Origin: a virus
Direction: 5' to 3' (one strand)
Length of the DNA: 16,595 nucleotides
UHGV virus genome: UHGV-0309045
Position 1 is the first letter of the stretch. Every line of letters starts with the position of its first letter. The position numbers and the translations under genes are program-made. Positions 1 to 16,595 of the stretch are shown one piece after another. The notes beneath the pieces are model-generated. The model saw only the letters and a program-made list of their open reading frames with translations. It searched no databases and had not been told where the DNA came from.

Positions 1-1
1 G

Positions 2-1198: not shown

Positions 1199-1201
1199 CG
1201 T

Positions 1202-1396
1202 TTAATAGTTCTGCTGATTTTCTTCCATCTCTGCTTCTGCTGCCAGTGATTCAATTTTGTTTTCGAATATTGCTGACAGTGTTGCAAATTCAGCATCAGT
1301 GACAGCGGGAATTGGAACAAACCTGATCCCGCTGTGTGCAAGCATGTTTGCAGTTTCAAGGCATTTTCTTAAATCTGCTGGTGATGCCCTGTTCAT
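1202..1396 (-). CDS. Small hypothetical protein (64 aa), translationally coupled to the upstream methyltransferase; possibly a DUF4224-like integrase-adjacent protein
   Basis: ATG 1396-1394 overlaps the methyltransferase stop TGA 1395-1393 (ATGA). Sequence MNRASPADLRKCLETANMLAHSGIRFVPIPAVTDAEF...; stop TAA 1204-1202 lies 3 bp from the integrase stop. Family assignment is a weak recollection only. Confidence 0.4.
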   Translation of the reverse strand: MNRASPADLRKCLETANMLAHSGIRFVPIPAVTDAEFATLSAIFENKIESLAAEAEMEENQQNY

Positions 1397-2043: not shown

Positions 2044-2335
2044 AAACCACCCCACAACATCCTATGCCGCTATAGTCGCCACGGCGAAGGCCGTTACCTT
2101 TTGTGATACATTGGTCCCTGCGAACCGCGATCCTTGCACGTTCAACATCACCAGAAGCAACATCCATACACTGAAGCCAAAGGTGAGCGGCAATGCGGAA
2201 TTGCCCTTTTTTCTCTCTTTCAATCGCGCGTTTTTCGATCTCTATCGCCGCAGGAGTAACGGCGACAATCTTTGACGGACTGCGCATTGAAACCTTATTC
2301 ATGTGATATTTTTCAAGTCGGCTTAACTTTCTCAC
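2036..2335 (-). CDS. Hypothetical protein (99 aa from GTG 2335; alternative ATG at 2287 with AAGG RBS gives 83 aa)
   Basis: ORF in the leftward early operon whose 3' end overlaps the methyltransferase start by 8 nt. No recognisable motif. Confidence 0.5.
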   Translation of the reverse strand: MRKLSRLEKYHMNKVSMRSPSKIVAVTPAAIEIEKRAIEREKKGQFRIAAHLWLQCMDVASGDVERARIAVRRDQCITKGNGLRRGDYSGIGCCGVVYD

Positions 2336-2444
2336 TTAATCCAACCCTCTCTGAAAATTAATGCCAGCAGATAAAGCCATGCTGAAACAGAGGCCAGGAA
2401 TAAGTACCATCCTGACCATTTGCTCCAGTGCCTTAGCAGCGCAC

Positions 2445-2693
2445 TCATGCAGCGTTGCTCACGGGACGATATACACGTTGCTGAACAGGAGGCTTTTTAC
2501 CCTGGAACTCTGCCGGGCTTGCTGCCTGACGTTCATCAAGCCAACGCTCAACTTCATCACGGTTCCATGCGCAGCGTTTATCGGTGATATACCAGCGTTT
2601 AGGAAATTCCCCTGCGCGCTCCATACGGTCGATAGTGCTCCATGACAGTGGCACCACCGCCAGGAGTTCTTTCTTACCTAATGCACCTTTCAT
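2445..2693 (-). CDS. AlpA-family HTH DNA-binding protein / excisionase-like regulator
   Basis: KELLAVVPLSWSTIDRMERAGEFPKRWYITDKRCAWNRDEVERWL matches the AlpA/Xis-type winged-helix pattern. RBS GAGAGG 5 nt upstream of ATG 2693. Confidence 0.75.
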   Translation of the reverse strand: MKGALGKKELLAVVPLSWSTIDRMERAGEFPKRWYITDKRCAWNRDEVERWLDERQAASPAEFQGKKPPVQQRVYRPVSNAA

Positions 2694-2742
2694 GAATACC
2701 TCTCTTGGTTGCAGTGCGGCGCACGTGGCGCCGCGGTGGTGG

Positions 2743-3765
2743 TTACTCGAATTCTGGACGCATATCGTTAAGCGTCATCATGAATTTTTGGTGATATTCA
2801 TCACCGAGCTTTTCAGCCATGGTGTTAATTTCATTTTCAGCGCGCTTGAACATCGTTTTTGCATCTTCAGCAGATGGATCCAGGCTATTAAGTATCGCGA
2901 TGATATATTCTCGAGCTTCTTCTCGTTCTGAATCTGAAATTGGCGACAGGTGTTGACGCTCATCGTCAACTACGGAATATTCACCAGTGATAACAGCTGC
3001 GTTATCTTGGCTAAGTCCAGCTTCAGCGCGCTCATCCATAACAACAGCCTTCTGCATTTCAATAGAAACAGGAAGATATTTGAACAGTCGGCGAATTACT
3101 GTTTTTTTAGCCATCTCATCGAAGTGATCAACCCATGGGCCACTGCTACCGGCTTTGCTCAGTGCACGAACTTTCTCAACGTCTGCCCGGCTCATAACTT
3201 CAAATTGGACTCCGCCATCTTTCAGTCGTGCAACGGCGTAAACGTGCGTTAATTCTCCGCGGTCACCTGTTTCGCAAGGTAAATGCTCGAGCGTTTCTTC
3301 CAGGCCGTATGAGTAGCTGAATTTGTCGTTTGTATGTACGGTACGAGCCGAGATACTCAGGATCTGCCCAGAGCGGCGGGCAAGGTCAATCATTCCGCGA
3401 TAGCCGATAATCAGCTGTGCTTCTGTAGATACGGTTTCCCATCTTCCATTTACTTTCTGGCGTTTGTCGAACGGTATCAGGTAAGCGTGTCCAAGAGCTC
3501 CGCCTGGTTCAAGACCCAATTGGGCACATTGCATAATTGCCCCCAGGAAGCTGGCTTGGTCGCATGATGCAAGTTTTGGAACCTTTCTGATCTCTGTGGT
3601 TGCTATGCGCGCCAGACGGTCTGCTGTCATGTGCTTTGGAAGTGCCAAAGCCATCTGAGCTTTAATTTTTGGGTCTGCCAGAAGTCCGGCCAGAGTTGTT
3701 GGTTTCTCATTATGATGTGCAACTTGGTTACCGGTAGCCGCTGCCTTAAGTGCATTGATAGACAT
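2743..3765 (-). CDS. recT: RecT-family single-strand annealing recombinase
   Basis: Long collinear similarity to E. coli Rac RecT as recalled (RIATTEIRKVP, QCAQLGLEPG, LIIGYRGMIDLARRSGQI, HVYAVARLKDGGVQFEVM, KKTVIRRLFKYLPVSIEMQKAV). RBS AAGGAG 6 nt upstream of ATG 3765. Confidence 0.92.
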   Translation of the reverse strand: MSINALKAAATGNQVAHHNEKPTTLAGLLADPKIKAQMALALPKHMTADRLARIATTEIRKVPKLASCDQASFLGAIMQCAQLGLEPGGALGHAYLIPFDKRQKVNGRWETVSTEAQLIIGYRGMIDLARRSGQILSISARTVHTNDKFSYSYGLEETLEHLPCETGDRGELTHVYAVARLKDGGVQFEVMSRADVEKVRALSKAGSSGPWVDHFDEMAKKTVIRRLFKYLPVSIEMQKAVVMDERAEAGLSQDNAAVITGEYSVVDDERQHLSPISDSEREEAREYIIAILNSLDPSAEDAKTMFKRAENEINTMAEKLGDEYHQKFMMTLNDMRPEFE

Positions 3766-3774
3766 TTTTTCTCC

Positions 3775-4674
3775 TTACTTCATTCTGAAGACGCGTTGTG
3801 TCGTTGTTGTTTTGAATTTTTCGAATAACTCAGGGTGTACTGACTGGAATAGCTTCTGGTCGAATCTGTTGCTGATCTGAGATTTCCATGTGCAGAGCGG
3901 CTTTCCGTCCAGGGTCAGGACTGAGTGCTCTTGCATGTACATCTTCAGCTTCTCTTCTGATATAGCTATTTCTTCTTCCAGTGATTTTCTGCGTGATTTC
4001 ATGTCTCGTAGATCGTTGAATAGTGCGAGTGCCTTTCCGTCAGCCTCGATACTTGTCCCGGCATCTTTCTCAAACATCAGCGATACATCGCTTACGCTGG
4101 TAGCTTCCGGCGGGTTAAGATTTTTCACTCGGTCCCAGAAAGCGATTTCTTTTTCTAAGATCGCCTGGATAGTTTCTTCATCACGCTCAACCCGATAGAT
4201 TCGGAAGTCGTCGCCACCGATAAGCACACCGAAAACGCATACCTGTTTGTTTGTAACCATCAACCCGTGCATGGCCTGGGCCGTGTAATGCACAGGAATT
4301 GCATCTGTCTGGATTTCTCCCCATTCTTTGGCCTTGAACGGACTAACTGTTTTGATCTCAATGTTCTCGCCTGACGCTGCTTCTGCATCGATCTCAGCTG
4401 CAATAAAATCGTAATCACGGTGGATATAGCGGTTTCCGCGATGAACGATTTCCATCCCTGTTTCCTCAGAAAGCAGGTCTATTACGTATGGCTCCATACG
4501 CTGGCCACGCGTGAAAACTTTCTGCTTGCTTTGGTCTACTGGTTTGACACGTGGCTGGACCTTATCCAGATAAACCTCAAGCGGGGTGCGCCATGGGCTA
4601 ATTCCAAGAATCCCTGCAACATCGCTTCCTCCGATGTATTTTGTTCTATCCATGATTCCAGCGTTCCGCATCAT
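3775..4674 (-). CDS. RecE/YqaJ-family 5'-3' exonuclease (short form, partner of RecT)
   Basis: YqaJ-type nuclease motif YIGGSDVAGILGISPWRTPLEVY. Sits immediately upstream of recT, and its stop TAA lies inside the recT RBS. Start ATG 4674 overlaps the upstream ORF stop (ATGA). Confidence 0.8.
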   Translation of the reverse strand: MMRNAGIMDRTKYIGGSDVAGILGISPWRTPLEVYLDKVQPRVKPVDQSKQKVFTRGQRMEPYVIDLLSEETGMEIVHRGNRYIHRDYDFIAAEIDAEAASGENIEIKTVSPFKAKEWGEIQTDAIPVHYTAQAMHGLMVTNKQVCVFGVLIGGDDFRIYRVERDEETIQAILEKEIAFWDRVKNLNPPEATSVSDVSLMFEKDAGTSIEADGKALALFNDLRDMKSRRKSLEEEIAISEEKLKMYMQEHSVLTLDGKPLCTWKSQISNRFDQKLFQSVHPELFEKFKTTTTQRVFRMK

Positions 4675-4970
4675 GCCGCGTCCCTCTGCCCATCAAGCTG
4701 ATCCGCCAGATCCCAGCGCGCTATAATTGCCATTGCCTCGCGCCGGTAGGCATCCATCAGTTCTTCGAACTCAGGGCTGTCTTTAGCAGCCTCCAGCACT
4801 TCCTGACGAACGCCTTTGCCTGTTACAACGTCGAAAGTTGAGGACAGTTGATGAAGTCGGATGCTCTCAATCAGTTCAACTTGTCGGTCATATAGCTGTT
4901 CTGACAGGCGGTAGTCCTTGTCGAATGCCAGCATGATTTTTTGAAGATTTTTCTGCTGATTAACGTTCAT
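4671..4970 (-). CDS. Hypothetical protein (99 aa); possible Gam-like host-nuclease inhibitor by position and weak C-terminal resemblance
   Basis: Preferred start ATG 4970 with GGGAGGG RBS. Lies directly upstream of the exonuclease/RecT pair, as gam does for bet/exo. Segment DSPEFEELMDAYRREAMAIIA loosely resembles lambda Gam as I recall it. Confidence 0.45.
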   Translation of the reverse strand: MNVNQQKNLQKIMLAFDKDYRLSEQLYDRQVELIESIRLHQLSSTFDVVTGKGVRQEVLEAAKDSPEFEELMDAYRREAMAIIARWDLADQLDGQRDAA

Positions 4971-4972
4971 TA

Positions 4973-5125
4973 TCAGCCCTCCCATATCTCATTATCGTTG
5001 GCTACATCGCGAGCTTCTTTGCTGACGAAAGCCCACTTAATGCCTTCCTGTAAGGTGCGGAACTTCCAGCTCATGAATCCGCATGCAGTAACGCAGTACC
5101 AACCGTTGATGATTTTCCACTGCAT
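4973..5125 (-). CDS. Small ORF (50 aa), first gene after the pL-like promoter
   Basis: Hand-translated: MQWKIINGWYCVTACGFMSWKFRTLQEGIKWAFVSKEARDVANDNEIWEG. ATG 5125-5123 with GAGGT about 9 nt upstream; stop TGA 4975-4973 abuts the next start. Below the ORF-track length cutoff. Confidence 0.35.
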   Translation of the reverse strand: MQWKIINGWYCVTACGFMSWKFRTLQEGIKWAFVSKEARDVANDNEIWEG

Positions 5126-5144
5126 AACTTGTTACCTCGGTCTG

Positions 5145-5159
5145 TTACCGTTGAGGTAA
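5145..5159. promoter_or_regulatory. Operator site TTACC GTTGA GGTAA (promoter-proximal site of the pL-like promoter)
   Basis: Perfect match to the TTACC-N5-GGTAA palindrome. An extra TTACC half-site at 5132-5136 forms a 7-bp inverted repeat TTACCTC/GAGGTAA around it. Confidence 0.6.
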
Positions 5160-5187
5160 TAATTATGCTTATTTGGTTTGGTGTCAA
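5159..5187 (-). promoter_or_regulatory. pL-like leftward early promoter
   Basis: On the minus strand: -35 TTGACA (plus coordinates 5187-5182), 17-bp spacer, -10 AATTAT (5164-5159) whose last base is the first base of the operator at 5159-5145. Confidence 0.5.
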
Positions 5188-5206
5188 TAGATATGAGTTA
5201 AAAAAA

Positions 5207-5221
5207 TTACCCGTAAGGTAA
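5207..5221. promoter_or_regulatory. Operator site TTACC CGTAA GGTAA (promoter-distal site of the pL-like promoter)
   Basis: Perfect palindrome match, 19 bp from the -35 hexamer and 62 bp centre-to-centre from the site at 5145-5159. Confidence 0.6.
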
Positions 5222-5232
5222 TCTATCTGGCA

Positions 5233-5256
5233 ATAAAAAAGCCGCCATGAGGCGGC
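5233..5256 (-). terminator. Rho-independent terminator of the repressor gene
   Basis: Hairpin GCCGCC-ATGA-GGCGGC (5241-5256) followed on the minus strand by TTTTTTATTG (5240-5231), 23 bp downstream of the repressor stop. Confidence 0.75.
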
Positions 5257-5278
5257 TTACTTACTGAAAAATATAGTT

Positions 5279-5863
5279 TTATTGTTTGCTTTTTTCGTTC
5301 TGGTTGATGACAAATTCAATGTAACTTTCGATCTTTGCTTTCTCGGTTTCGGGTAACAATGCGTAGCGCGAGCGGTCATAGTTGATAGTCGCAGGGTCGT
5401 GCGGGTGAATCAGTAGTTCATATCCGTGACGCCCGAATGCGGATGCAACATTCTCCAGGGTGGAAATGGAAACGCTGACCTCATTGTTTAACAGGCGACT
5501 GATTGTCACCTGGGCGACGCCGGATGCGCGGTGAAGTTTTCCCTGCGTTGAAAGGTCGCGGCTTTCGCTCATCCAGCGTTCCAGGTTGTGAGCCGCCAGC
5601 TGACCAATGTCGCTTGGGCCGACAGGCTGAAAACCTTCCTGAGAAAGCGAGCGATCGATATCAAGCCAGTTACGGGGTTTATTGGCGGCAGCTTCAATTT
5701 TTCGCGCAACCTGGTCGCCGATAACCTTCTTGCCAAGAGCCCAGCGGTTTACCAGATTTGCCTGAGTTCCAAGTTTTTCTGCCATCCGCGTCTGAACACC
5801 ATTGAATTCACGGTCGATCAAGTCGTTGAGATTTTGCCTGCGGACGTCCTGGATACTTTTCAT
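5279..5863 (-). CDS. CI-like prophage repressor with two HTH segments and no recognisable LexA/S24 peptidase domain
   Basis: Divergent from the Cro-like gene across an operator-rich intergenic region. HTH-like segments TRMAEKLGTQANLVNRW and ASGVAQVTISRLL. No Ala-Gly/Ser-Lys autocleavage motifs seen by eye. Confidence 0.75.
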   Translation of the reverse strand: MKSIQDVRRQNLNDLIDREFNGVQTRMAEKLGTQANLVNRWALGKKVIGDQVARKIEAAANKPRNWLDIDRSLSQEGFQPVGPSDIGQLAAHNLERWMSESRDLSTQGKLHRASGVAQVTISRLLNNEVSVSISTLENVASAFGRHGYELLIHPHDPATINYDRSRYALLPETEKAKIESYIEFVINQNEKSKQ

Positions 5864-5918
5864 TTTCTGGAAAATCGCCTCATATATGAATCAGTAGATG
5901 ATTCAATTTAAAGCAATA

Positions 5919-5981
5919 TTACCCAACAGGTAAATGCACCTCATAGGTAACTATCCTTGATTTTTGTTACCTTATGGGTGA
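5919..5981. promoter_or_regulatory. OR-like operator cluster with divergent promoter region (three sites)
   Basis: 5919-5933 TTACCCAACAGGTAA (perfect), 5936-5950 gcACCTCATAGGTAA, 5967-5981 TTACCTTATGGGTgA. Candidate rightward promoter: -35 TTGTTA 5964-5969 and -10 TATTAT 5987-5992, with the third site covering the spacer. Confidence 0.65.
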
Positions 5982-6017
5982 ATATTTATTATCTGAAATA
6001 AATATCAGGCAATAGCT

Positions 6018-6248
6018 ATGAGCGATAACGGACATTTCGATTTCAAAAAGCACTGGCTTGCACTTACTCCGGATGAGCGTGAAGCCTTCGCACAGGAAGC
6101 CGGAACGACGAGTCACTATATCCAGACTCACTTAACAGGTAAGCGCAAAATGCCAGGTAAGGTATTGATGAATGGGCTTTTTAAAGCCTGTAAAACAAGA
6201 CAATGGCTGCGCTCAAAAGCAGAACTGGCATACTTCTTCTACTCATGA
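6018..6248 (+). CDS. Cro-like small HTH regulator
   Basis: 76 aa, first rightward gene after the operator cluster, with an HTH-like segment REAFAQEAGTTSHYIQTHLTG. Followed by a terminator. Confidence 0.6.
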   Translation: MSDNGHFDFKKHWLALTPDEREAFAQEAGTTSHYIQTHLTGKRKMPGKVLMNGLFKACKTRQWLRSKAELAYFFYS

Positions 6249-6270
6249 TATCCATCCACAACCCTCTGTA

Positions 6271-6292
6271 GACCGCCATCCGGCGGTCTTTT
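6271..6292 (+). terminator. Rho-independent terminator after the Cro-like gene (tR1-like position)
   Basis: Hairpin GACCGCC-ATCC-GGCGGTC followed by TTTT. Confidence 0.7.
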
Positions 6293-6303
6293 CATATCTA
6301 TTC

Positions 6304-6318
6304 GTACCTCAAAGGTAA
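6304..6318. promoter_or_regulatory. Imperfect operator-like site gTACC TCAAA GGTAA
   Basis: 9 of 10 match to the TTACC-N5-GGTAA half-sites, between the terminator and the next gene. A TTGATC hexamer lies at 6336-6341. Confidence 0.35.
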
Positions 6319-6398
6319 TAAAAAACCAAATCTGGTTGATCTTTTTTTTGTGTCAGCACAAAATGACCGTAATCCCAATACTAATAACAGGGCTTACC

Positions 6399-6599
6399 AT
6401 GGAAATTATTACACGTATTGATGCCGCAAAGCGCGGACTTAAACGCTACTACACCGGAAAACCATGTAAGCACGGACATGACAGTGAACGCTGGGTTTAC
6501 AACGGACACTGTGTTGAGTGCACTATGGAATCAAACCGTCGCATCAGGGCAGAGATTAAGCAGATCATGATTAATTCCTCCCCACAACATTCAAGCTGA
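6399..6599 (+). CDS. Small zinc-ribbon-like protein (66 aa)
   Basis: Preferred start ATG 6399 with CAGGG RBS 6 nt upstream. Cys/His cluster KPCKHGH...NGHCVEC. Occupies the CII-like position between the Cro-like and replication genes. Confidence 0.55.
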   Translation: MEIITRIDAAKRGLKRYYTGKPCKHGHDSERWVYNGHCVECTMESNRRIRAEIKQIMINSSPQHSS

Positions 6600-6614
6600 T
6601 AGCGGAGATTAATC

Positions 6615-7406
6615 ATGAGCAGACATGCAACAGATTGGGCCTGGGAGACAGATCCAGGTAGCTCGTCATTAAAGCTCATACTGCTCTCGATGGCTGACAG
6701 AGCCGATGAATATAACCTCTGCTACCCCAGCATAGAACGCCTCGTTAAAGACACTTGCCTGAATAAAAAAACCGTGCAGGCCGGGCTTATATCGCTCATG
6801 AAAATGGGGCTTATTTCAGATACCGGAGAGAGAAAGGGTGCGACGAAAAGAGTGCGGGTTTTCTCTCTTAATATAACCAAAAACGGGAACATTAAAGGCA
6901 ACCGGGAAGGGGGTAATGAACCCGAAAACGGTAATGTTACCGAAAACGGGAATATACCCAAAAACGGGATGTTGAATGATCCCAAAAACGGGATCCAGAA
7001 CCAGTCATATAACCAGTCATTTAACCAAGAGAGGGAGAGCAGGACAAAAAGCGGGGATTCTGTGCCTCATGACCCCGGCGCAAACAACGCCGTGATGAAT
7101 AACTTTGTTCCTCCTGGTGGGCCAGGGCAATTAGGCAAATTTGTCATGCATGAACAATGGCAGCCATCAGATGACTTTCTTCGGAAAAGCTCATTGCAGG
7201 GGATCTACCTGGACAGTCTGCCAACGGCACAGGAGCTTGCAGAGTTCAGAATTTACTGGATGGCTGAGGGTAAGGCATACCATCAGGCACAGTGGGAGCA
7301 GAAGCTGGCAAGGCGGCTGCAGATTAGCAGACAGAAGCAATCAACATTACCTGATAACAACGTTCCGCACTGGAACAGCCCTGAAGCGTGGGAGGATTTC
7401 TTGTGA
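6615..7406 (+). CDS. Replication initiator: N-terminal winged-HTH domain and C-terminal DnaT-like domain (lambda O functional analogue)
   Basis: C-terminal block GKFVMHEQWQPSDDFLRK...ELAEFRIYWMAEGKAYHQAQWEQKLARRLQI resembles E. coli DnaT as recalled. The central NG-rich linker is encoded by the iterons. GGAG RBS upstream of ATG 6615. Confidence 0.8.
   Translation: MSRHATDWAWETDPGSSSLKLILLSMADRADEYNLCYPSIERLVKDTCLNKKTVQAGLISLMKMGLISDTGERKGATKRVRVFSLNITKNGNIKGNREGGNEPENGNVTENGNIPKNGMLNDPKNGIQNQSYNQSFNQERESRTKSGDSVPHDPGANNAVMNNFVPPGGPGQLGKFVMHEQWQPSDDFLRKSSLQGIYLDSLPTAQELAEFRIYWMAEGKAYHQAQWEQKLARRLQISRQKQSTLPDNNVPHWNSPEAWEDFL
6877..6993. repeat. Iteron array (putative phage ori) inside the initiator gene
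   Basis: Five copies of CC(A/G)AAAACGG(G/t)A at 6877, 6922, 6940, 6958 and 6982 (spacings 45, 18, 18, 24 bp), followed by a tandem AACCAGTCAT repeat at 6999-7008 and 7011-7020. Confidence 0.7.
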
Positions 7407-8188
7407 ACAACGTTTTTACCGCGATACAAAACCGTGACGGAGAAGCCCTTTCTCGCATGTCAGGTTATGAGCATCAGTACGTCAACAATGACAATGTGGT
7501 GAACATGTCAGCAGAGAGGCTTGTTGATGCCCTTTTCAAACAGCTGAAACAACTGTTTCCGGCGGCAGTAGTAACCAACCTGAAGACTCCAGAGCAGGAA
7601 GTTGCTGCAAAACAGCAGTGGATTGCTGCGTTTGCCGAAGGGGGGATCCGAACCCGTGAACAGGTTTCTGCTGGTATGCGCCACGCCCGCGCCAGTGAAT
7701 CTCCGTTCTGGCCGTCGCCAGGGCAATTCATCAAGTGGTGTAAAGACAGCAAGATGGTTCTTGGCGTCACCATTGACGATGTGATGGCGGAGTTTCACCG
7801 GTACAGCAAGGAAAAAAGTTTATATCCTGGTGGTCCCGAAAGATTCCCGTGGCGACATCCGGTTATGTACTGGGTCGTATGTGATACCCGCCGTGCAATG
7901 TATCAGCGCCAGCTTAGCGAGATTGAGGTTGAGAAACACGCGCGCAGGCTGCTCGATGATTGGGCGAAAAAGGTAGCTTCCGGACAGCAGATACCCGATC
8001 CGGTGATCAGCATACAGGCAAAGCCAGAACCCATGAGTACGCCTCCGGACACAGGGAGAGACGTTTACCATCCACCAGGGCGAAGTTTCGGGTGTATGCC
8101 TAACGCCGCCACATTGGGGGGAATAACACCGGCACAGTGGCTGATGGAGGAATACAGGCGGGGAAAGGCGGCAGGATTTATCAAGTAA
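7403..8188 (+). CDS. Lambda P-like replication protein (helicase loader)
   Basis: PFWPSPGQFIKWCK and surrounding blocks match lambda P as recalled (PFLPSPGQFVAWCR). GTG 7403 overlaps the initiator stop TGA 7404-7406 and has GGAGG 7 nt upstream; the ORF track starts 15 nt earlier at another GTG. Confidence 0.85.
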   Translation: MNNVFTAIQNRDGEALSRMSGYEHQYVNNDNVVNMSAERLVDALFKQLKQLFPAAVVTNLKTPEQEVAAKQQWIAAFAEGGIRTREQVSAGMRHARASESPFWPSPGQFIKWCKDSKMVLGVTIDDVMAEFHRYSKEKSLYPGGPERFPWRHPVMYWVVCDTRRAMYQRQLSEIEVEKHARRLLDDWAKKVASGQQIPDPVISIQAKPEPMSTPPDTGRDVYHPPGRSFGCMPNAATLGGITPAQWLMEEYRRGKAAGFIK

Positions 8189-8193
8189 TACCA

Positions 8194-8213
8194 GCGCGAT
8201 AGCGCATTTTTTT
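8194..8213 (+). terminator. Weak terminator-like element after the P-like gene
   Basis: 4-bp GC stem GCGC-GATA-GCGC followed by ATTTTTTT. The stem is short, so confidence is low. Confidence 0.3.
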
Positions 8214-8225
8214 ACGCCTTGATAG

Positions 8226-8302
8226 TTACCTTCTGGGTAACAAAGTATTCTAAACTCTATTGATTTCGTGTCTTATGTGGTTTTTAATTACCTCAGGGGT
8301 AA
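8226..8302 (+). promoter_or_regulatory. Operator-promoter-operator module driving the accessory operon
   Basis: Operators TTACCTTCTGGGTAA (8226-8240) and TTACCTCAGGGGTAA (8288-8302), both perfect palindrome matches. Between them -35 TTGATT 8260-8265, 17-bp spacer, -10 TTTAAT 8283-8288. The downstream operator overlaps the RBS of the 8306 gene. Confidence 0.6.
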
Positions 8303-8305
8303 ATT

Positions 8306-8650
8306 ATGAGAAAACAGATACAGGCTCTTGGTCGACTCAAAACAGGCCAGATGAACAAAACAGAATCTGCGTATTGCCAGCACCTTGAGTTGCGTAAACG
8401 TGCAGGAGAAATCGTCTGGTATCGATTTGAGGGTATCAAGCTGCGGTTAGCTGACAACACGTTCTATACGCCAGATTTTGCTGTGATGCTCGCCACCGGC
8501 GAGATGGAACTGCACGAAGTGAAAGGTTTCTGGACCGACGACGCCAGGGTGAAAACCAAAGTCGCCGCAGATCAGTATCCGTTCCGAATCATCGGGGTAA
8601 CGGTTAAACCAAAGAAAGCAGGTGGTGGCTGGAACATCGAAGAGTTCTGA
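8306..8650 (+). CDS. DUF1064-like phage protein (putative PD-(D/E)xK-type nuclease fold)
   Basis: Pattern ...AYCQHLELRKRAGEIVWYRFEGIKLRL...YTPDFAVM...ELHEVKGFWTDDARVKTKVAADQYP fits the DUF1064 spacing as I recall it. RBS AGGGG 6 nt upstream. Confidence 0.55.
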   Translation: MRKQIQALGRLKTGQMNKTESAYCQHLELRKRAGEIVWYRFEGIKLRLADNTFYTPDFAVMLATGEMELHEVKGFWTDDARVKTKVAADQYPFRIIGVTVKPKKAGGGWNIEEF

Positions 8651-8711
8651 ATCGACGATCTTTTTAGTTATCAATGTAATCAATAAGTTATGTGGATAAG
8701 CGAGGGTAAAG

Positions 8712-9245
8712 ATGGAAAGTAATATCAAAGGGTTAGTTGCCGCCGGGCATGAGATGGCTTCGGAACTGAAAGCAGAATGTGGTGCCGTTGATATGCGCAG
8801 TGTGGCAAAGCTGATCAGCGATTTGGCAACGCAACTGGAAGTGCAACTGGTGCGTGCTAATGCGATGGCCGAAGACCAGCAGAAAGCGATTGAGTCAATT
8901 AAGCAGGCTGATTCGGCTGTTAAGTTGGCACACGAGAAGTTTTCGGCGCTGGCGGCGGAGAATGCGGCAATGCATGAAGCTATTGAAGCCGTTCGGAGTG
9001 TTGCGGATAACTCCAGTGGAATTGCCGGATGGCATTTGAATGGCGATATCGCTACATGGGAAGAGATTCTTCCTGAAATTAACGATATCGAAACCCCAGC
9101 CACCGATGCTTTCCTGGCTGAAGTACGGGCGCAGGGGGTAGAGATGTTCTCAGAAAAATTCGGAGGTGGCACTCCGCTATCCAATATGGTCAAAGAGGTT
9201 GCGGCTGATTTTGCGGCGAAGCTTCGCAAAGGAGGCAACCAGTGA
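8712..9245 (+). CDS. Hypothetical helical protein (177 aa)
   Basis: GAGGG RBS 5 nt upstream of ATG 8712; stop overlaps the next start (GTGA). No recognisable motif. Confidence 0.7.
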   Translation: MESNIKGLVAAGHEMASELKAECGAVDMRSVAKLISDLATQLEVQLVRANAMAEDQQKAIESIKQADSAVKLAHEKFSALAAENAAMHEAIEAVRSVADNSSGIAGWHLNGDIATWEEILPEINDIETPATDAFLAEVRAQGVEMFSEKFGGGTPLSNMVKEVAADFAAKLRKGGNQ

Positions 9246-9865
9246 GCAAGATTGACTATCAGGCACTGCGTGAAGCGGCAGAACGCGCAATTCCGGCAAT
9301 GGAACGCCTGTTAACGTTGCCAGCCGATGATGACTTGTTAAGCGAAAAGGAGCTTAAAGATAGCGATGTTGATATTGATGCGATTAACAACTTCAAACTG
9401 CTGACCGGCCCGGAAACGGTGCTGGCACTGCTGGATGAACGGGAAAGAAACCAGCAATACATAAAACGCCGTGACCAGGAGAACGAGGATATTGCGCTTA
9501 CGGTTGGGAAGCTGCGAGTTGAGCTGGAAGCCGCAGAGAAGCGCAACGCTGAATTACAAAGCGAGAATGCATACATCCGCAACCGGTTCAAAGAACTGGA
9601 CCTGTTAATCGGGAAAAACATTCTGGTCATGCAGGCTGCGATTATCGAATGGCAGGCAACTGGCGACGCTAAGAGCGGACTGGCATGGATTTATAACACA
9701 CTGTTTGGCCCTGGCGAATTGCCGGACGAATCTGAGAAAGATGCTCAGGCCTACTTTAATCGCAAATATGCACCGATTGACGAAAAGCTTATGGAGCTTC
9801 ACAAGTGGTTTTGGGAACAAAGTGAATCCGAGCGCGCCGCTGGCATTCGCATCAAAGGAGAGTGA
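9242..9865 (+). CDS. Hypothetical coiled-coil protein (207 aa), possibly ead/Ea22-like
   Basis: GTG 9242 with GGAGG RBS 6 nt upstream. N-terminus MSKIDYQALREAAERA and a central coiled-coil segment. Family name is a tentative recollection. Confidence 0.6.
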   Translation: MSKIDYQALREAAERAIPAMERLLTLPADDDLLSEKELKDSDVDIDAINNFKLLTGPETVLALLDERERNQQYIKRRDQENEDIALTVGKLRVELEAAEKRNAELQSENAYIRNRFKELDLLIGKNILVMQAAIIEWQATGDAKSGLAWIYNTLFGPGELPDESEKDAQAYFNRKYAPIDEKLMELHKWFWEQSESERAAGIRIKGE

Positions 9866-9866
9866 T

Positions 9867-10154
9867 ATGGCAACTTTGCAGGAATTAATCGACCTGACGC
9901 CAGAACAGGAAAAAGCGTGGAATCGCCTTGTGAAGGCTGTAAAGGATTTCAGGGCAGCCGGAGGAAAGTTTTATAGCGTCCTGGACACGCTGAGCGCATA
10001 CAACGGCGAGCACGTTGCCAGCATTGATAACGATAAGGGCTACCACACTGCAAGCGTCTATATGCCTAGCATTGATGCGCCAGGGCTAACCAGTTGGGCT
10101 GATGATTGGCACGGCATCACGCTGAAAGATGGCGTTGAAGTGGATGAGGACTAA
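9867..10154 (+). CDS. Hypothetical protein (95 aa)
   Basis: ATG 9867 one nucleotide after the previous stop, with AAAGGAGAG RBS. The ORF track extends further upstream in frame, but that part overlaps the preceding gene. Confidence 0.65.
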   Translation: MATLQELIDLTPEQEKAWNRLVKAVKDFRAAGGKFYSVLDTLSAYNGEHVASIDNDKGYHTASVYMPSIDAPGLTSWADDWHGITLKDGVEVDED

Positions 10155-10157
10155 CAC

Positions 10158-10517
10158 ATGACCACTATTACCAATAAGAAACAGTATCCCAGCGAGCAAT
10201 ATCTTAATGAGCTGATCACCAACATAGAGTTTGCTGCAAGGGCACCAGTTGAAGTCGTGAGAGCGATGGCAGCAGAGCTACAGAAGCGGCGCGAAGCTGA
10301 TAGTGCAGAACCTGTAAGCCAGGCTTACAAGTTGAACGCGCTGGATGGCAACTCTCCGGTAACTCCGGATGGTTGGGTTATGGTTCCTAAACAGGTAACG
10401 CCGGAAATCAGCAACGCGATAAACGTTGTGGGTCAACGCTGTACATGCGGAAATTGCTCTCAGCGGTTGTGGGATTTATTACTCGACGCCACACAGCAAG
10501 GAGTTAACCGTGGCTAA
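10158..10517 (+). CDS. Hypothetical protein (119 aa)
   Basis: ATG 10158, 3 nt after the previous stop. C-terminal CTCGNC motif. Confidence 0.65.
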   Translation: MTTITNKKQYPSEQYLNELITNIEFAARAPVEVVRAMAAELQKRREADSAEPVSQAYKLNALDGNSPVTPDGWVMVPKQVTPEISNAINVVGQRCTCGNCSQRLWDLLLDATQQGVNRG

Positions 10518-10791
10518 CCTGCAACTTGCCGTTAAAGGTGAATACTTCGATGCCATGATTCGCGGAGAGAAAACGGAAGAGTATCGCCTGTGTAATGACT
10601 ACTGGAATAAGCGAATTATGTTCCGGGAGTATGACCGCCTGATTATCACAAAGGGATATCCGAAGCGCGACGACTCCAGCCGCAGAATTAACGTCCAGTA
10701 TGACGGATATGAAATCAAGACAATCACACATCCCCACTTCGGTGATAAACCGGTAAAGGTGTTCGCGATAAAGGTAAATATTGATGGCTAA
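10510..10791 (+). CDS. ASCH/DUF3850-like small protein (94 aa)
   Basis: GTG 10510 with AAGGAG 6 nt upstream, overlapping the previous gene by 8 nt. LQLAVKGEYFDAMIRGEKTEEYR resembles the ASCH-like DUF3850 N-terminus as recalled. Confidence 0.5.
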   Translation: MANLQLAVKGEYFDAMIRGEKTEEYRLCNDYWNKRIMFREYDRLIITKGYPKRDDSSRRINVQYDGYEIKTITHPHFGDKPVKVFAIKVNIDG

Positions 10792-11122
10792 ATCAGCAGC
10801 AGAGCGCAAAGCCGCTCAGAGAGCCAGACAAGCTGCATCTGGTGTGTGTAAGCTGGAAATTGTGCTTGATGCTCAGGAAATTGAAATGCTGGCGCGGAAC
10901 TGCGCCGCCCGGCGCCCTAGTCGCGATCCCTATGAAATGGCCGAGTACATCGCGCTGCTGATCCGCCAGGATGATGCACGTGTGCGCGGGCGTATAAAAT
11001 CGATCAGCAGAAAACTTTGCGGTAAGTGCGGCGAGAGAGTTCCCGTTAATTCATGCCCGTGTAATGGTGACTCGCAATGCTGGGTGACTAAAGGCTGGCA
11101 TGAAACGAAATTAATAGTGTGA
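10784..11122 (+). CDS. Basic Cys-rich zinc-ribbon protein (113 aa); candidate regulator, last gene before the terminase operon
   Basis: ATG 10784 overlaps the previous stop. Basic N-terminus MAKSAAERKAAQRARQAA and C-terminal CGKCGERVPVNSCPCNGDSQC cluster. Stop TGA 11120-11122 lies inside the 12-bp palindrome. Confidence 0.6.
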   Translation: MAKSAAERKAAQRARQAASGVCKLEIVLDAQEIEMLARNCAARRPSRDPYEMAEYIALLIRQDDARVRGRIKSISRKLCGKCGERVPVNSCPCNGDSQCWVTKGWHETKLIV

Positions 11123-11130
11123 CATGTCAC
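11119..11130. repeat. Perfect 12-bp palindrome GTGACATGTCAC (14-bp TGTGACATGTCACG shared with 13383-13396)
   Basis: Read directly from the sequence. Overlaps the stop of the 10784 gene and precedes the terminator at 11172. Confidence 0.85.
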
Positions 11131-11171
11131 GAGTAGATTATGCATGATGAATTTGATGGGTTTTGAATACT

Positions 11172-11198
11172 GCCGCCAACTATGGCGGCTTTATTTTG
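11172..11198 (+). terminator. Rho-independent terminator ending the accessory operon
   Basis: Hairpin GCCGCC-AACTAT-GGCGGC followed by TTTATTTTG. Confidence 0.75.
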
Positions 11199-11201
11199 CA
11201 T

Positions 11202-11233
11202 GGTACTATTACCACAACGGTAACTATTACCAC
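11202..11233 (+). repeat. Tandem direct repeat GGTA(A)CTATTACCAC x2 with 18-bp period, just upstream of the terminase small subunit
   Basis: ACTATTACCAC at 11205-11215 and 11223-11233. Each unit carries the operator half-sites in everted order (GGTAA-N3-TTACC). No sigma70 consensus promoter is evident, so this may be an activator-dependent late promoter. Confidence 0.5.
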
Positions 11234-11240
11234 GGTGGTT

Positions 11241-11837
11241 ATGATGCCTGCTGAACCTAAAACCTATAAACGCAAATCAACGCAATTTAAGCCACTAACA
11301 GCAATGCAGGAGGCTTATTGCCAGTCATACATCAAAACGCCTGAAAACCAGACTCAGGCAGCGATTAACGCAGGATTCTCCCCAAATACAGCGGCAGTTA
11401 AAGCCAGTGTCATGATGCGCGATGAACGCATTCAAAAACGGATTGCCGAGCTGATGGAGGAGCGCAACAAACGAATGCGCGTCAGTGCTGATTACGTTCT
11501 CATGCGCCTGGTGGAGATCGACCAGATGGACGTGATCGACATCCTCAACGACGATGGGAGCCTTAAGCCAATCCGCGAGTGGCCGAAAATCTGGCGCACT
11601 ACGCTTAGCGGCTTTGATCTGTCATCGACCATCATGAACATGAACGAGGATTCGATAGAGACAATCCTCAAAAAAATTAAATGGCCTGACAAGGTGAAGA
11701 ACCTCGAGCTTATCGGTAAGCACGTCGACGTCAACGCGTTCAAAGAGCGCCTGGATGTTAATGTGAATGTGACAATTGCTGATCGCATAGCGGCAGCCAG
11801 GAAGCGACTCAAAGAACGTCAGGATGGTAATCAGTGA
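11241..11837 (+). CDS. Terminase small subunit (Terminase_2-like)
   Basis: LTAMQEAYCQSYIKTPENQTQAAINAGFSPNTAAVKASVMM matches the small-terminase HTH signature. Start placed at ATG 11241 because the ORF-track start at 11163 spans the upstream terminator. Confidence 0.8.
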   Translation: MMPAEPKTYKRKSTQFKPLTAMQEAYCQSYIKTPENQTQAAINAGFSPNTAAVKASVMMRDERIQKRIAELMEERNKRMRVSADYVLMRLVEIDQMDVIDILNDDGSLKPIREWPKIWRTTLSGFDLSSTIMNMNEDSIETILKKIKWPDKVKNLELIGKHVDVNAFKERLDVNVNVTIADRIAAARKRLKERQDGNQ

Positions 11838-13309
11838 CAGATGCAGTGTTATCTCCTGAAGAGCAGTTAATCGAAGATATTGCAGGGTTCACTCACGATC
11901 CGCTTGGCTATGCCCTCTATGCGTTCCCGTGGGGGGAAGAGGGGACTGAACTGGCACATGCCACCGGCCCACGTCAGTGGCAGGCTGATGCGTTCCGAGA
12001 GATACGTGATCACCTGCAGAATCCAGAGACGCGCTATCAGCCGCTTATGCTGGCACGCGCTTCTGGTCACGGTATTGGTAAATCCGCATTCATCTCAATG
12101 CTGATCAACTGGGGCATGTCCACTTGCGAGGATTGTAAGGTCGTGGTGACCGCCAACACCGACAACCAGCTACGAACGAAGACTTGGCCGGAAATTATCA
12201 AGTGGTCGAACCTTGCTATCACGAAAGACTGGTTTACCTGTACCGCTACCGCGATGTACAGCAATGACCCTGGGCACGACAAGCGGTGGCGAGCTGACGC
12301 AATCCCCTGGTCTGAGCACAACACTGAGGCATTCGCCGGATTACACAATGAGCGCAAACGCATCATCGTGGTATTCGATGAAGCGTCGAACATTGCGGAT
12401 CTGGTGTGGGAAGTTGCCGAGGGTGCGCTAACGGACGAAGACACTGAGATTATCTGGGTGGCGTTCGGAAACCCGACGCGTAATACCGGACGTTTCCGTG
12501 AATGTTTCCGCAAGTATAAACACCGCTGGAAAACTGCGCAGATTGACAGTCGGACGGTGGAAGGTACCAACAAACAGCAGTTGCAGAAATGGGTTGATGA
12601 CTACGGGGAAGACAGCGACTTCGTTAAAATCCGTGTGCGTGGCATATTCCCTGATGCATCTGAATTGCAGTTTATCCCTACCGGTCTTACTGACGAGGCA
12701 ATAAAACGGGTGGTAACCGCTGCGCAGGTTGCACATGCTCCGGTGATAATCGGCGTTGACCCGGCATACTCCGGCGTTGATGACGCTGTGATATACCTGC
12801 GGCAGGGGCTACACAGTAAGGTGCTGTGGACTGGAAACAAGACTACCGACGATCTGATTATGGCGAAGCGTATCGCTGACTTTGAAGACCAGTATCAGGC
12901 TGACGCGGTGTTCATCGACTTTGGTTACGGAACCGGTTTGAAGTCAATCGGTGACGGCTGGGGTCGTACATGGCAACTTGTTCCGTTCGGTGGCGCGTCT
13001 ACTGACCCGCAGATGCTCAACAAGCGTGGGGAGATGTTCAACTCATGCAAGACATGGCTGAGGCTTGGCGGCATGCTGGATGACCATGAAACAGCGGACG
13101 ACCTGTCGGCGGCAGAGTACAAAGTTCGAGTGGACGGTAAAATCGTTATCGAACCGAAGGAAGATATCAAAGAGCGGCTTGGGCGTTCTCCTGGTAAAGG
13201 CGATGCGCTACTGCTGACGTTTGCGTTCCCTGTGTCGAAGCGTCTGCGAATTCCCGGTCAGCAGAACCAGCAAGGCAAGGCCATCACAGATTACGATCCC
13301 TATGCTTAA
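11834..13309 (+). CDS. Terminase large subunit (ATPase plus nuclease)
   Basis: Walker A ARASGHGIGKS, Walker B-like IIVVFDEAS, nuclease-domain block VIIGVDPAYSGVDDAVI. GTG 11834 overlaps the small-subunit stop (GTGA). Confidence 0.9.
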   Translation: MTDAVLSPEEQLIEDIAGFTHDPLGYALYAFPWGEEGTELAHATGPRQWQADAFREIRDHLQNPETRYQPLMLARASGHGIGKSAFISMLINWGMSTCEDCKVVVTANTDNQLRTKTWPEIIKWSNLAITKDWFTCTATAMYSNDPGHDKRWRADAIPWSEHNTEAFAGLHNERKRIIVVFDEASNIADLVWEVAEGALTDEDTEIIWVAFGNPTRNTGRFRECFRKYKHRWKTAQIDSRTVEGTNKQQLQKWVDDYGEDSDFVKIRVRGIFPDASELQFIPTGLTDEAIKRVVTAAQVAHAPVIIGVDPAYSGVDDAVIYLRQGLHSKVLWTGNKTTDDLIMAKRIADFEDQYQADAVFIDFGYGTGLKSIGDGWGRTWQLVPFGGASTDPQMLNKRGEMFNSCKTWLRLGGMLDDHETADDLSAAEYKVRVDGKIVIEPKEDIKERLGRSPGKGDALLLTFAFPVSKRLRIPGQQNQQGKAITDYDPYA

Positions 13310-13350
13310 TCCGCTGGTGGGGATAATGTCGTTGATATCCTCTGGTGAGG

Positions 13351-13379
13351 ATAAAACAAAGCCAGCTCATCGGCTGGCT
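13351..13379 (-). terminator. Terminator hairpin between the convergent terminase large subunit and 118-aa genes (mainly minus-strand)
   Basis: Stem AGCCAGC-TCATCG-GCTGGCT (13360-13379). Minus strand has TTGTTTTAT after the stem; plus strand has only GTTTG. Confidence 0.5.
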
Positions 13380-13383
13380 GTTT

Positions 13384-13395
13384 GTGACATGTCAC
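13384..13395. repeat. Second copy of the palindrome GTGACATGTCAC
   Basis: Identical 14-mer TGTGACATGTCACG at 13383-13396, lying between the stop of the 118-aa gene at 13400 and the terminator hairpin. Confidence 0.85.
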
Positions 13396-13399
13396 GGTG

Positions 13400-13756
13400 T
13401 TATTGCTCGCTTAACTTCTGCTTCAGCAAGTAACCTTCGAGCATCCAGATTTTGTTTACAGCATTCTGCCGGGCAATCTTCCGACCAATTTCTGCATCAA
13501 AATTTTCCGGACTTGCACAGGCACTCTCTCCGGTGACGGTGAAGCCATTCTTCAGTACCAATACGCAGAAAGTCAGGAGGTCTGTAGATTTATGCGCTGT
13601 CCATGAATCGCCAACGCCCATATTGGCAGCACGAATGCCGTCATAAGCAGTAAAGAAATGCTCTTCAAGAATGATGCTTTCGATATATTGAGGCGTAACT
13701 CGCGGAGCGGTTTTGCCTTTCTCAACGATTTCTTTTTCGATTTGCTGGTCGTTCAT
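13400..13756 (-). CDS. Hypothetical protein (118 aa), reverse-oriented cargo gene inside the late region
   Basis: ATG 13756-13754 with AAGGTGAG RBS. Opposite strand to the flanking terminase and portal genes. No family recognised. Confidence 0.7.
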   Translation of the reverse strand: MNDQQIEKEIVEKGKTAPRVTPQYIESIILEEHFFTAYDGIRAANMGVGDSWTAHKSTDLLTFCVLVLKNGFTVTGESACASPENFDAEIGRKIARQNAVNKIWMLEGYLLKQKLSEQ

Positions 13757-13767
13757 AATCTCACCTT

Positions 13768-13791
13768 AAAAAAATGCCCGGCGAACCGGGC
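13768..13791 (-). terminator. Rho-independent terminator immediately upstream of the 118-aa gene RBS
   Basis: On the minus strand: GCCCGG-TTCG-CCGGGC followed by ATTTTTTT (plus coordinates 13776-13791 stem, 13768-13774 A-tract). Confidence 0.65.
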
Positions 13792-13869
13792 GAACTGGAA
13801 GCAATGAGTTATGCCTTCCGTGGCTGTACGGGTTTACAGCATGAAGTCATCGCAATGGCGTCCTGCTGT

Positions 13870-13911
13870 AAAAAGGGCGGTGATAGTCCTTCAAGGGAAA
13901 CCATCACCGCC
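13870..13911 (-). terminator. Rho-independent terminator downstream of the tRNA
   Basis: 9-bp stem GGCGGTGAT/ATCACCGCC (13876-13884 and 13903-13911) with an 18-nt loop, followed on the minus strand by CTTTTTAC. Confidence 0.6.
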
Positions 13912-13954
13912 AAGCCCCTGGAACTTCTGGCATCACGGTCCTTAGGCGTGATTC

Positions 13955-14031
13955 TGGTGTGGCATGCAGGATTCTAACCTGCGACCAACCGCTTAGAAGG
14001 CGGTTGCTCTGTCCAACTGAGCTAATGCCAC
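13955..14031 (-). tRNA. tRNA-Arg (anticodon UCU), argU-like, with encoded CCA
   Basis: Minus-strand sequence GTGGCATTAGCTCAGTTGGACAGAGCAACCGCCTTCTAAGCGGTTGGTCGCAGGTTAGAATCCTGCATGCCACACCA folds by hand into a cloverleaf: 7-bp acceptor stem, 4-bp D stem, 5-bp anticodon stem with loop CTTCTAA, 5-bp T stem, discriminator A, CCA. Close to E. coli argU as recalled. T-loop reads TTAGAAT rather than TTCGAAT. Confidence 0.9.
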
Positions 14032-14353
14032 AACGCTGAGAGCACTTAGCCTGTTAAGGCGCCACACTTTGTCGCGGCTCCATAAATGCTCTCATCGTTG
14101 TACCCTCGTCTCTTCCGAGGCGTCACACCGAATCGCCGGGATGGTGAATCCCCGTGCGCGGAATAAAACCGCTCGACTTGCACATTCCGGCTACCTGGTT
14201 CGTTTGCCCGAGCAAGGTAGGGTGCCCCTTAAACGTATCCAGACCGCTATCGTCGCATGTGCCATACGCCGTACTGCTCAAAATAAAAGCTCACTCCACC
14301 TGTTCAATTTAACGACAAGCCAGTCAGGTTAGTAACCGGAATGAACTTTTTTG

Positions 14354-14390
14354 TTACCCGAAGGGTAATAATTCGCGCGTTAAATGTCAA
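14354..14390 (-). promoter_or_regulatory. Operator TTACC CGAAG GGTAA (14354-14368) with an adjacent minus-strand -35 TTGACA (14390-14385); candidate repressor-controlled leftward promoter for the tRNA unit
   Basis: Perfect palindrome match and a perfect -35 hexamer on the minus strand 16 bp away. No convincing -10, so direction and function are inferred. Confidence 0.4.
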
Positions 14391-14458
14391 CTGCCTACGA
14401 TAAATAAATCATATGTGGTTAAATTGGTAATAATTTAATTGCGTACGGAGTCATTGAT

Positions 14459-14665
14459 ATGTGCATGGGTAGCTCACCATCAGTGCCTGCAACACCAGAA
14501 GTTCAGGCAGCACCACAGGAGCAGGATTCCGCCGTTGTTGATGCCCGAGACGAAGAAACTCGTCGCCGTCGCGCTGCTGCTGGTCGTAGTTCTACGCTGC
14601 TTACCGGTTCTCAGGGCGACACATCAACCGCTAATACCAGCGGTAAAACGCTGCTTGGTCAGTAA
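14459..14665 (+). CDS. Small low-complexity ORF (68 aa) immediately upstream of the portal gene
   Basis: GGAG RBS 8 nt upstream of ATG 14459. Shares the 12-nt translation-initiation sequence CGGAGTCATTGA with the portal gene. Ala/Ser/Thr/Arg-rich; coding status uncertain. Confidence 0.45.
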   Translation: MCMGSSPSVPATPEVQAAPQEQDSAVVDARDEETRRRRAAAGRSSTLLTGSQGDTSTANTSGKTLLGQ

Positions 14666-14679
14666 CCGGAGTCATTGAA

Positions 14680-16359
14680 ATGGCGGAAACAACTAAAGAG
14701 CGATTGAACAAACAGTTCGCACAACTTGAAAGCGAGCGTCAGTCGTTCGAGCCGCACTGGCGCGAGTTGAGTGATTACATCAACCCGCGTGGTTCCCGCT
14801 TTCTGACTTCTGAGGTCAACCGTAACGATCGACGCAATACACGCATTATTGATTCGACCGGGACTATGGCGGCGCGCACTCTCGCCAGCGGCATGATGTC
14901 AGGCATCACAAGCCCCGCGCGTCCGTGGTTTCGCCTGGCTACGCCAGATCCTGAAATGATGGATTATGGCCCTGTTAAGTTGTGGCTTGAGGCGGTGCAG
15001 AACCGCATGAACGATATGTTCAATAAGTCGAATCTCTACCAGTCTCTTCCGCAGTTATACGGAAGCCTCGGCACATACAGCACTGGTGCAATGGCGGTGC
15101 TGGAGGATGACGAGGACATCATTCGCACAATGCCATTCCCGATAGGCAGTTACTACCTGGCTAACTCACCTCGTGGCAGTGTGGACACCTGTTTTCGCAA
15201 GTTCTCTATGACTGTTCGTCAGCTTGTTCAGGAGTTCGGGCTAAATAACGTCAGCGAATCCGTAAAAAGCATGTGGGAAAGCGGCACCTACGAGAAGTGG
15301 ATTGACGTGATGCATTCGGTTTACCCGAACATTGACCGCGATACATCGAAGCTGGATAGCAAGAACAAGCCATTCAAATCGGTTTATTACGAGGTTGGTG
15401 GCGATAACGACAAGTTGTTGCGTGAGTCCGGATTTGATGAGTTTCCAATTATGGCTCCGCGCTGGGAAGTTAATGGCGAAGATGTTTATGGATCATCATG
15501 CCCGGGTATGCTGGCGCTTGGACCTGTTAAGGCATTGCAGCTTCTCCAGAAGCGCAAGTCGCAGTTGATTGATAAAGCCACCAATCCGCCGATGGTTGCT
15601 CCGACTTCCCTCAAGAATCAGCGCGCCTCCCTTCTTCCTGGCGACATCACGTATATCGATCAGATTACTGGTCAGGATGGTTTCAGGCCTGCTTATCTGG
15701 TTAACCCCAGTACAGCAGATCTGGTAGCAGACATTCAGGACACTCGTCAAATCATTAACAGCGCCTACTTTGTCGATCTGTTCATGATGTTGCAGAACAT
15801 CAATACCCGCTCGATGCCTGTTGAAGCGGTGATCGAAATGAAAGAAGAAAAACTTCTGATGTTGGGGCCGGTTCTGGAGCGTCTGAACGACGAATGTCTT
15901 AACCCTCTCATTGACCGCGCTTTCTCGATGATGGTGCGTAAAAACATGCTGCCGCCACCGCCTGACGCGATGGAAGGTATGCCCCTGAAGGTCGAATACA
16001 TTTCCGTCATGGCTCAGGCGCAGAAGTCTATCGGCCTGTCCAGTCTGGCGTCCACGGTTAACTTCATTGGTCAACTTGCGCAAGCGAAACCAGAAGCTCT
16101 CGACAAACTCAACGTTGATCAGGCGATCGATGCATTCGCTGATATGTCCGGAGTGTCTCCAACCGTCATTGTTCCGCAGGAACAGGTTGAGCAGGCTCGC
16201 CAGCAACGGGCACAGCAGCAACAGCAGCAACAAATGATGGCGATGGGGATGGCGGCGGCACAGGGTGCCAAGACGCTAAGCGAAGCTAAAACTTCGGATC
16301 CGAGTGTTTTGTCAGCTATGGCGAATGCAGTTAGTGGTCAGGGTGGGCAATCACAATGA
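14680..16359 (+). CDS. Portal protein (T7 gp8-like head-to-tail connector family)
   Basis: 559 aa. Overall pattern and the Gln/Ala/Met-rich C-terminal tail (QQRAQQQQQQQMMAMGMAAAQGA) resemble T7 gp8 as recalled. GGAG RBS 8 nt upstream of ATG 14680. Confidence 0.88.
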   Translation: MAETTKERLNKQFAQLESERQSFEPHWRELSDYINPRGSRFLTSEVNRNDRRNTRIIDSTGTMAARTLASGMMSGITSPARPWFRLATPDPEMMDYGPVKLWLEAVQNRMNDMFNKSNLYQSLPQLYGSLGTYSTGAMAVLEDDEDIIRTMPFPIGSYYLANSPRGSVDTCFRKFSMTVRQLVQEFGLNNVSESVKSMWESGTYEKWIDVMHSVYPNIDRDTSKLDSKNKPFKSVYYEVGGDNDKLLRESGFDEFPIMAPRWEVNGEDVYGSSCPGMLALGPVKALQLLQKRKSQLIDKATNPPMVAPTSLKNQRASLLPGDITYIDQITGQDGFRPAYLVNPSTADLVADIQDTRQIINSAYFVDLFMMLQNINTRSMPVEAVIEMKEEKLLMLGPVLERLNDECLNPLIDRAFSMMVRKNMLPPPPDAMEGMPLKVEYISVMAQAQKSIGLSSLASTVNFIGQLAQAKPEALDKLNVDQAIDAFADMSGVSPTVIVPQEQVEQARQQRAQQQQQQQMMAMGMAAAQGAKTLSEAKTSDPSVLSAMANAVSGQGGQSQ

Positions 16360-16499
16360 CAGATTACGAAGACGATCAACTGAAAGAAGAAAACGCCCGT
16401 AAGCAACGTGACATGGCGCAGCGTGAAATTGATGACATTCGCTTTGTCATGAGCAGTGAACAGGGGCGTCGCGTTGTCTGGTGTCCATCGGTGAGATAG
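16356..16499 (+). CDS. 5' portion of the gene following the portal gene (scaffold-like position), apparently interrupted by the terminal inverted repeat
   Basis: ATG 16356 overlaps the portal stop (ATGA). Acidic N-terminus MTDYEDDQLKEENARKQRDMAQREIDD. The frame hits TAG at 16497-16499 inside the inverted-repeat spacer after only 47 codons. Confidence 0.35.
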   Translation: MTDYEDDQLKEENARKQRDMAQREIDDIRFVMSSEQGRRVVWCPSVR

Positions 16500-16595
16500 C
16501 GGAAAACACACGGCCTTTCTCCAGCACCGACCAGACAACGCGACGCCCCTGTTCACTGCTCATGACAAAGCGAATGTCATCAATTTCACGCTGCG
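16417..16595. repeat. Perfect inverted repeat of at least 66 bp (arms 16417-16482 and 16530-16595) with a 47-bp spacer, reaching the window end
   Basis: The reverse complement of 16530-16595 equals 16417-16482 exactly. The outer boundary is the window edge, so the repeat may be longer. Confidence 0.9.

Follow-up and report, generated by a model that had tools for sequence, protein, structure and literature searches.

The window, by which we mean the whole 16,595-nt stretch of DNA analysed here, is over nearly its entire length an epsilon15/phiV10-like prophage. It encodes, in order, an integrase, RecT/YqaJ, a repressor-like HTH protein, DnaT-like and P-like replication genes, the small and large terminase subunits, a Gp49-like gene, a tRNA-Arg and the portal. 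Positions 1-16482 are co-linear, in one piece and at 99.8% identity, with the guaA-adjacent prophage of E. coli FDAARGOS_1257 (NZ_CP069480.1), from which they differ by three SNPs and one 24-bp in-frame indel. The segment 14600-16482 is 100% identical to that prophage and 98.6-99.6% identical to epsilon15-like podoviruses (phiV10, TL-2011b, PAS61, ZX5 and others). The underlying element is an ordinary, widespread epsilon15/phiV10-like E. coli prophage.

The 24-bp indel is a deletion at position 6957 in the DnaT-like gene (6615-7406, plus strand), which encodes 263 aa here versus 271 aa in FDAARGOS_1257. The 263-aa allele occurs in 948 blocks of the gene-position collection and, being this common, represents an ordinary length polymorphism. 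One of the three SNPs separating the window from its closest reference, at position 13975, falls inside the tRNA-Arg(TCT) gene (13955-14031, minus strand) located between the Gp49-like gene and the portal, and ARAGORN calls a tRNA in both versions. The ead/Ea22 region upstream of the terminase genes is the most variable part of the element among the fetched relatives, with gene sets that differ among loci L003-L012 in the manner of typical mosaicism. The DUF551 gene in this region is annotated as a truncated pseudogene in the closest reference (positions 13182-13358 of locus L002, corresponding to window positions ~10182-10358).

The first base of the window falls within the annotated integrase ORF, 53 nt in. 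About 244 nt further left, at the 3' end of guaA, is ATTGAGTGGGAATGATT, a 17-bp direct repeat that recurs ~39.5 kb downstream (positions 198-214 and 39707-39723 of the fetched locus L013). This repeat is likely the att core, in which case the left end of the window is not the prophage boundary. The idea that the window begins at the att site, as might be taken for the sign of a graph branch, was rejected on the same grounds.

In relatives of this prophage, the gene after the portal is intact, encodes 98 aa and belongs to the Bbp19 family (PF25181, E = 2.8e-17). It is followed by genes for a 231-aa protein without a Pfam match, the major capsid protein, the Bbp16 cement protein and the gp10 staple protein, so that portal, Bbp19-like gene and these four make up the head module of the Uetakevirus type (epsilon15, phiV10, TL-2011b). 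Through position 16482 the window is an ordinary member of this type, and its last 113 bases alone differ: a 113-nt tail stands in place of the remainder of the Bbp19-like gene and the head genes downstream. The original prediction had expected a scaffold or capsid gene at the cut, which is at odds with the Bbp19-family assignment (98 aa, PF25181). The features at this end of the window are as follows.

14680-16359, plus strand: portal (head-to-tail connector), 559 aa, PF12236 with E = 1.8e-187; intact and native
16356-16482, plus strand: native 5' part of the Bbp19-family gene, comprising codons 1-42 plus base 1 of codon 43; exact match to the native gene
16356-16499, plus strand: chimeric ORF of 47 codons, consisting of 42 native residues and CPSVR, with its stop within the spacer
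16417-16482, plus strand: arm 1 of the inverted repeat; ordinary native coding sequence, single-copy in the reference loci
16482-16483, no strand: the sole novel junction, at which the plus strand to 16482 is joined to the minus strand from native 16529 with zero microhomology
16483-16529, minus strand: the 'spacer'; native sequence of the 47 bp that follow (Bbp19 codons 43-58), reverse-complemented
16530-16595, minus strand: arm 2 of the inverted repeat; a second copy of 16417-16482, reverse-complemented and stopped by the window end

The inverted repeat and its single junction

Direct measurement bears out the perfect 66-bp arms, the 47-bp gap and the placement of the second arm at the last base that the original prediction described. 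The two arms (16417-16482 and 16530-16595) are 66 nt each, 100% complementary and separated by 47 nt, and arm 2 closes at the final base of the window. The chance expectation of a 66-nt arm pair within 16.6 kb is ~1e-32. The second-longest inverted repeat in the window is only 19 nt long and imperfect, and the window minus its 113-nt tail contains no repeated canonical 21-mers at all. The strand carrying the arms is predicted to form a hairpin of very high stability (-97 kcal/mol, z = -22.5), which follows trivially from the inverted repeat itself.

The predicted length of the spacer (47 bp) is correct, but the spacer is neither neutral nor foreign sequence: it consists of the native 47 bp that come next, in inverted orientation. 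Spacer and arm 2 together form one co-linear block of 113 nt that is the exact reverse complement of native 16417-16529. In blastn comparison with the reference, window positions 1-16482 align to the plus strand of the locus, and positions 16483-16595, with 113/113 identity, to its minus strand. When a 76-nt probe over the junction was used, the references matched solely 16483-16545, as one co-linear piece. Read from the opposite strand of the duplex, the sequence is native through 16529 and then continues as the reverse complement from 16482 downward, which yields the identical single junction. Microhomology at this junction is 0 on the left and 0 on the right.

Two further properties of the arms follow from this arrangement. 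Their length of 66 nt is not intrinsic, because it reflects only that the window stops 113 nt past the junction (113 - 47). In addition, arm 2 carries the alleles of arm 1 at positions 16418, 16440 and 16463, which are variable among relatives, indicating that arm 2 was copied from the same molecule as arm 1. Recombination with an inverted, diverged second copy of the prophage was considered as a source of the tail and rejected on account of these shared alleles and of the lack of homology at the junction.

The reading frame that opens at 16356 does end within the spacer after 47 codons, as had been predicted, with its stop at 16499. This 47-codon ORF is a by-product of the junction. It has no match in Pfam, and neither of the two chimeric ORFs has a record in the gene-position collection.

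Occurrence of the junction and alternative biological origins

We compared the end of the window with related genomes and with assembled sequence collections. Near-full matches were obtained from 521 E. coli and 22 phage records, all of which end at query position 1883 (window position 16482), and none spans the junction. Among the 12 loci that were fetched, eight carry the exact native continuation and none carries the junction. A 32-mer over the junction was searched for in viral_contigs, genome_contigs and metagenome_contigs without a single exact hit, and the collections searched also lack the signatures of the window ends, namely the partial integrase and partial right-end ORF. The junction was therefore unseen in independent genomes and assemblies of the element (521 E. 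coli, 22 phages, 12 loci and three collections), as is expected of a fold-back chimera. A mosaic boundary just past the junction was considered as a cause of a contig break and found no support, the fetched relatives (a small sample) being near-identical for more than 600 bp beyond it.

The original prediction also offered an inversion junction as an alternative, that is, a programmed or accidental inversion of a segment lying between 66-bp repeats in the head module. The tail has the superficial look of such an event, since perfect repeats surround a 47-bp segment that is inverted relative to relatives. An inversion, however, keeps its outer flanks native, whereas here the inverted 47 bp are followed by the reverse complement of 16482-16417 and not by native sequence from 16530 onward. 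Because 16417-16482 is present in both orientations, it has been duplicated rather than flipped, and the geometry excludes a simple inversion. Moreover, the arm is single-copy in relatives, such that a recombinase would have had no pre-existing repeat on which to act, and the annotation of the reference prophage around the site lists portal, Bbp19-like, capsid and related genes but no invertase, the sole recombinase being the integrase ~16 kb away. We therefore consider an inversion to be exceedingly improbable.

Fold-back sequence might alternatively arise if a linear phage genome had been read through at its packaging terminus or at a telomere in the form of a covalently closed hairpin, and a stable hairpin is indeed predicted for the arms. 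Yet the gene in which the junction falls is conserved, and all relatives have it intact and in co-linear order; on the deposited phiV10 map the site is ~5.4 kb in and not terminal. In relatives this native site sits amid the head module and consists of coding sequence that is not palindromic. The annotation of the 40-kb reference prophage lists no protelomerase and does include the small and large terminase subunits. Nor would a hairpin end produce the asymmetric skip of 47 nt. Together these observations leave hardly any probability for a terminal origin of the tail.

A third possibility is that the sampled DNA contained a real inverted duplication (fold-back) formed in vivo. For example, a nascent leading strand might cross the replication fork and resume on the lagging-strand template, 47 nt further on. 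Another example is the repair of a hairpin-capped break in an induced or resident prophage, which might leave behind either a rearranged prophage or a defective genome of palindromic, 'snap-back' form. Either a leading-to-lagging switch or a hairpin-capped end would produce precisely the observed geometry (plus strand to 16482, minus strand from 16529). Furthermore, the contig follows the chimeric path instead of the native one, which would be natural for an in vivo duplication if the sample lacked the native continuation.

Several observations nevertheless weigh against such a duplication. The junction is missing from ~520 related E. coli prophages, from 22 phages and from three contig collections, its microhomology is zero, and the duplication would wreck a conserved head gene and render the phage non-viable. 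All support for it lies in 113 nt at the very end of the sequence, roughly what one short read, or a pair of mates that overlap, could yield. According to work on SbcCD by Leach and colleagues, wild-type E. coli reportedly does not stably maintain long perfect palindromes whose centre is short, and the palindrome here would be of that kind. Considering both sides, we regard an in vivo origin of the fold-back as unlikely. Slightly less likely still is the specific version in which the junction is real because a subpopulation of prophages, or of replicating DNA, bears a homology-free fold-back duplication centred on 16483-16529, either as a defective genome of the snap-back kind or as a palindrome that a switch across the fork had created, caught where the assembly ends. 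If true, this would count among the few documented homology-free fold-back duplications in temperate phages, with those 113 bases as its sole support.

A probable fold-back chimera at the end of the assembled sequence

The feature is very probably a fold-back (strand-switch) chimera located at the end of the assembled sequence and does not belong to the phage genome under this reading. This was the leading reading of the original prediction, and it is supported by the single strand-switch junction, by the lack of this junction in relatives and collections and by its position at the window end. On such comparative and positional evidence, the tail is most likely an artefact and not a biological feature.

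The sequence reads through the prophage from the integrase to position 16482 inside the Bbp19-family gene. It then enters the opposite strand 47 bp ahead, and the same DNA is re-read backwards for 113 bases until the window stops. Any duplex produced by such a strand switch necessarily looks like two perfect inverted arms flanking 47 bp that are themselves inverted, with an arm length determined by how far the continuation runs. Inverted joins of nearby sites are a product of strand-displacement amplification and of ligation-based library preparation. The cause here may have been one or a few chimeric molecules or reads, which the assembler would have used to lengthen the contig once the true path gave out.

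The behaviour of assembly graphs bears on the last of these steps. Because the k-mers across the junction are novel and a de Bruijn graph cannot invent a junction, it must have been carried by one read or more, or by a consensus step. For the window with its tail to be a de Bruijn path free of repeats, k must be at least 67, and one extra palindromic base would repeat a 67-mer. A speculative scenario compatible with this is that a graph walk at k = 67 halted upon re-entering its own path, which might account for an arm of k-1. Faced with a branch, a strict unitig assembler would stop and not take a minority chimeric path, so the native continuation must have been missing or weak at this point in the data set. 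A coverage gap would explain a weak or missing native path, and a genuine rearrangement would do so too.

In practical terms, the tail matters mainly for quality control, and all 113 bases of it should be cut away before the window is annotated. If left in place, they generate a false truncated gene of 47 aa, a false 66-bp palindrome and the false appearance of an interrupted head module.

Comparison with known fold-backs and chimeras

Inverted duplications formed in vivo have been described, for example under the ODIRA model (PMC10766183). As in that model and in quasi-palindrome template switching in E. coli, the tail of the window is arranged as native sequence, a short unique centre and the reverse complement of native sequence. 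ODIRA and quasi-palindrome events, however, begin at short inverted repeats, and the sole candidate in the window, a repeat of 6 bp, predicts a junction 6 nt off the observed one. This native repeat, which sits just within the 47-bp segment, consists of TCGGTG at 16482-16487 and CACCGA at 16519-16524 (positions 7883-7888 and 7920-7925 of locus L001). Fold-back priming at these sites was tried as an explanation and rejected, because it predicts a join of native 16524 to the reverse complement of 16481, whereas native 16529 is observed joined to that of 16482. With this being the only repeat nearby, the 6-nt discrepancy also counts against in vivo fold-back priming. The repeat does start at precisely the base where native sequence ends at the junction, a coincidence that is probably due to chance. 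Unlike ODIRA and quasi-palindrome events, the junction in the window is without population or comparative support.

Among chimeras generated by multiple displacement amplification (MDA), 85% are inverted and mostly join sites less than 10 kb apart, with numbers falling as distance increases (PMC1855051, Lasken & Stockwell 2007). Of the inverted MDA chimeras that join sites less than 10 kb apart, 93.5% have at least 2 complementary bases, and most short-range MDA chimeras have 2-21 (PMC1855051). The window junction differs from most short-range MDA chimeras in having no microhomology. MDA-type mispriming at a 3' end would mostly show at least 2 nt of complementarity, versus 0 nt found here, which makes this commonest in vitro mechanism a poor fit. 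For a blunt, homology-free join, a ligation-type event or an atypical, unprimed strand switch fits better than a microhomology-primed one.

Fold-back reads, in which the same locus is read on the opposite strand within 200 bp, are a documented artefact of long-read library preparation (PMC12870357, Heinz et al. 2026). The window contains two adjacent segments of the same locus on opposite strands at an offset of 47 nt, well inside the bound of 200 bp or less applied to such reads (PMC12870357). On fold-back artefacts at the ends of short-read contigs, the literature found consists of general papers on fold-backs, chimeras and de Bruijn graphs and gives no direct description. Like inverted MDA chimeras and long-read fold-backs, then, the window joins segments of one locus in opposite orientation and 47 nt apart, and its join is without reference support; the tail closes at the last base of the window.
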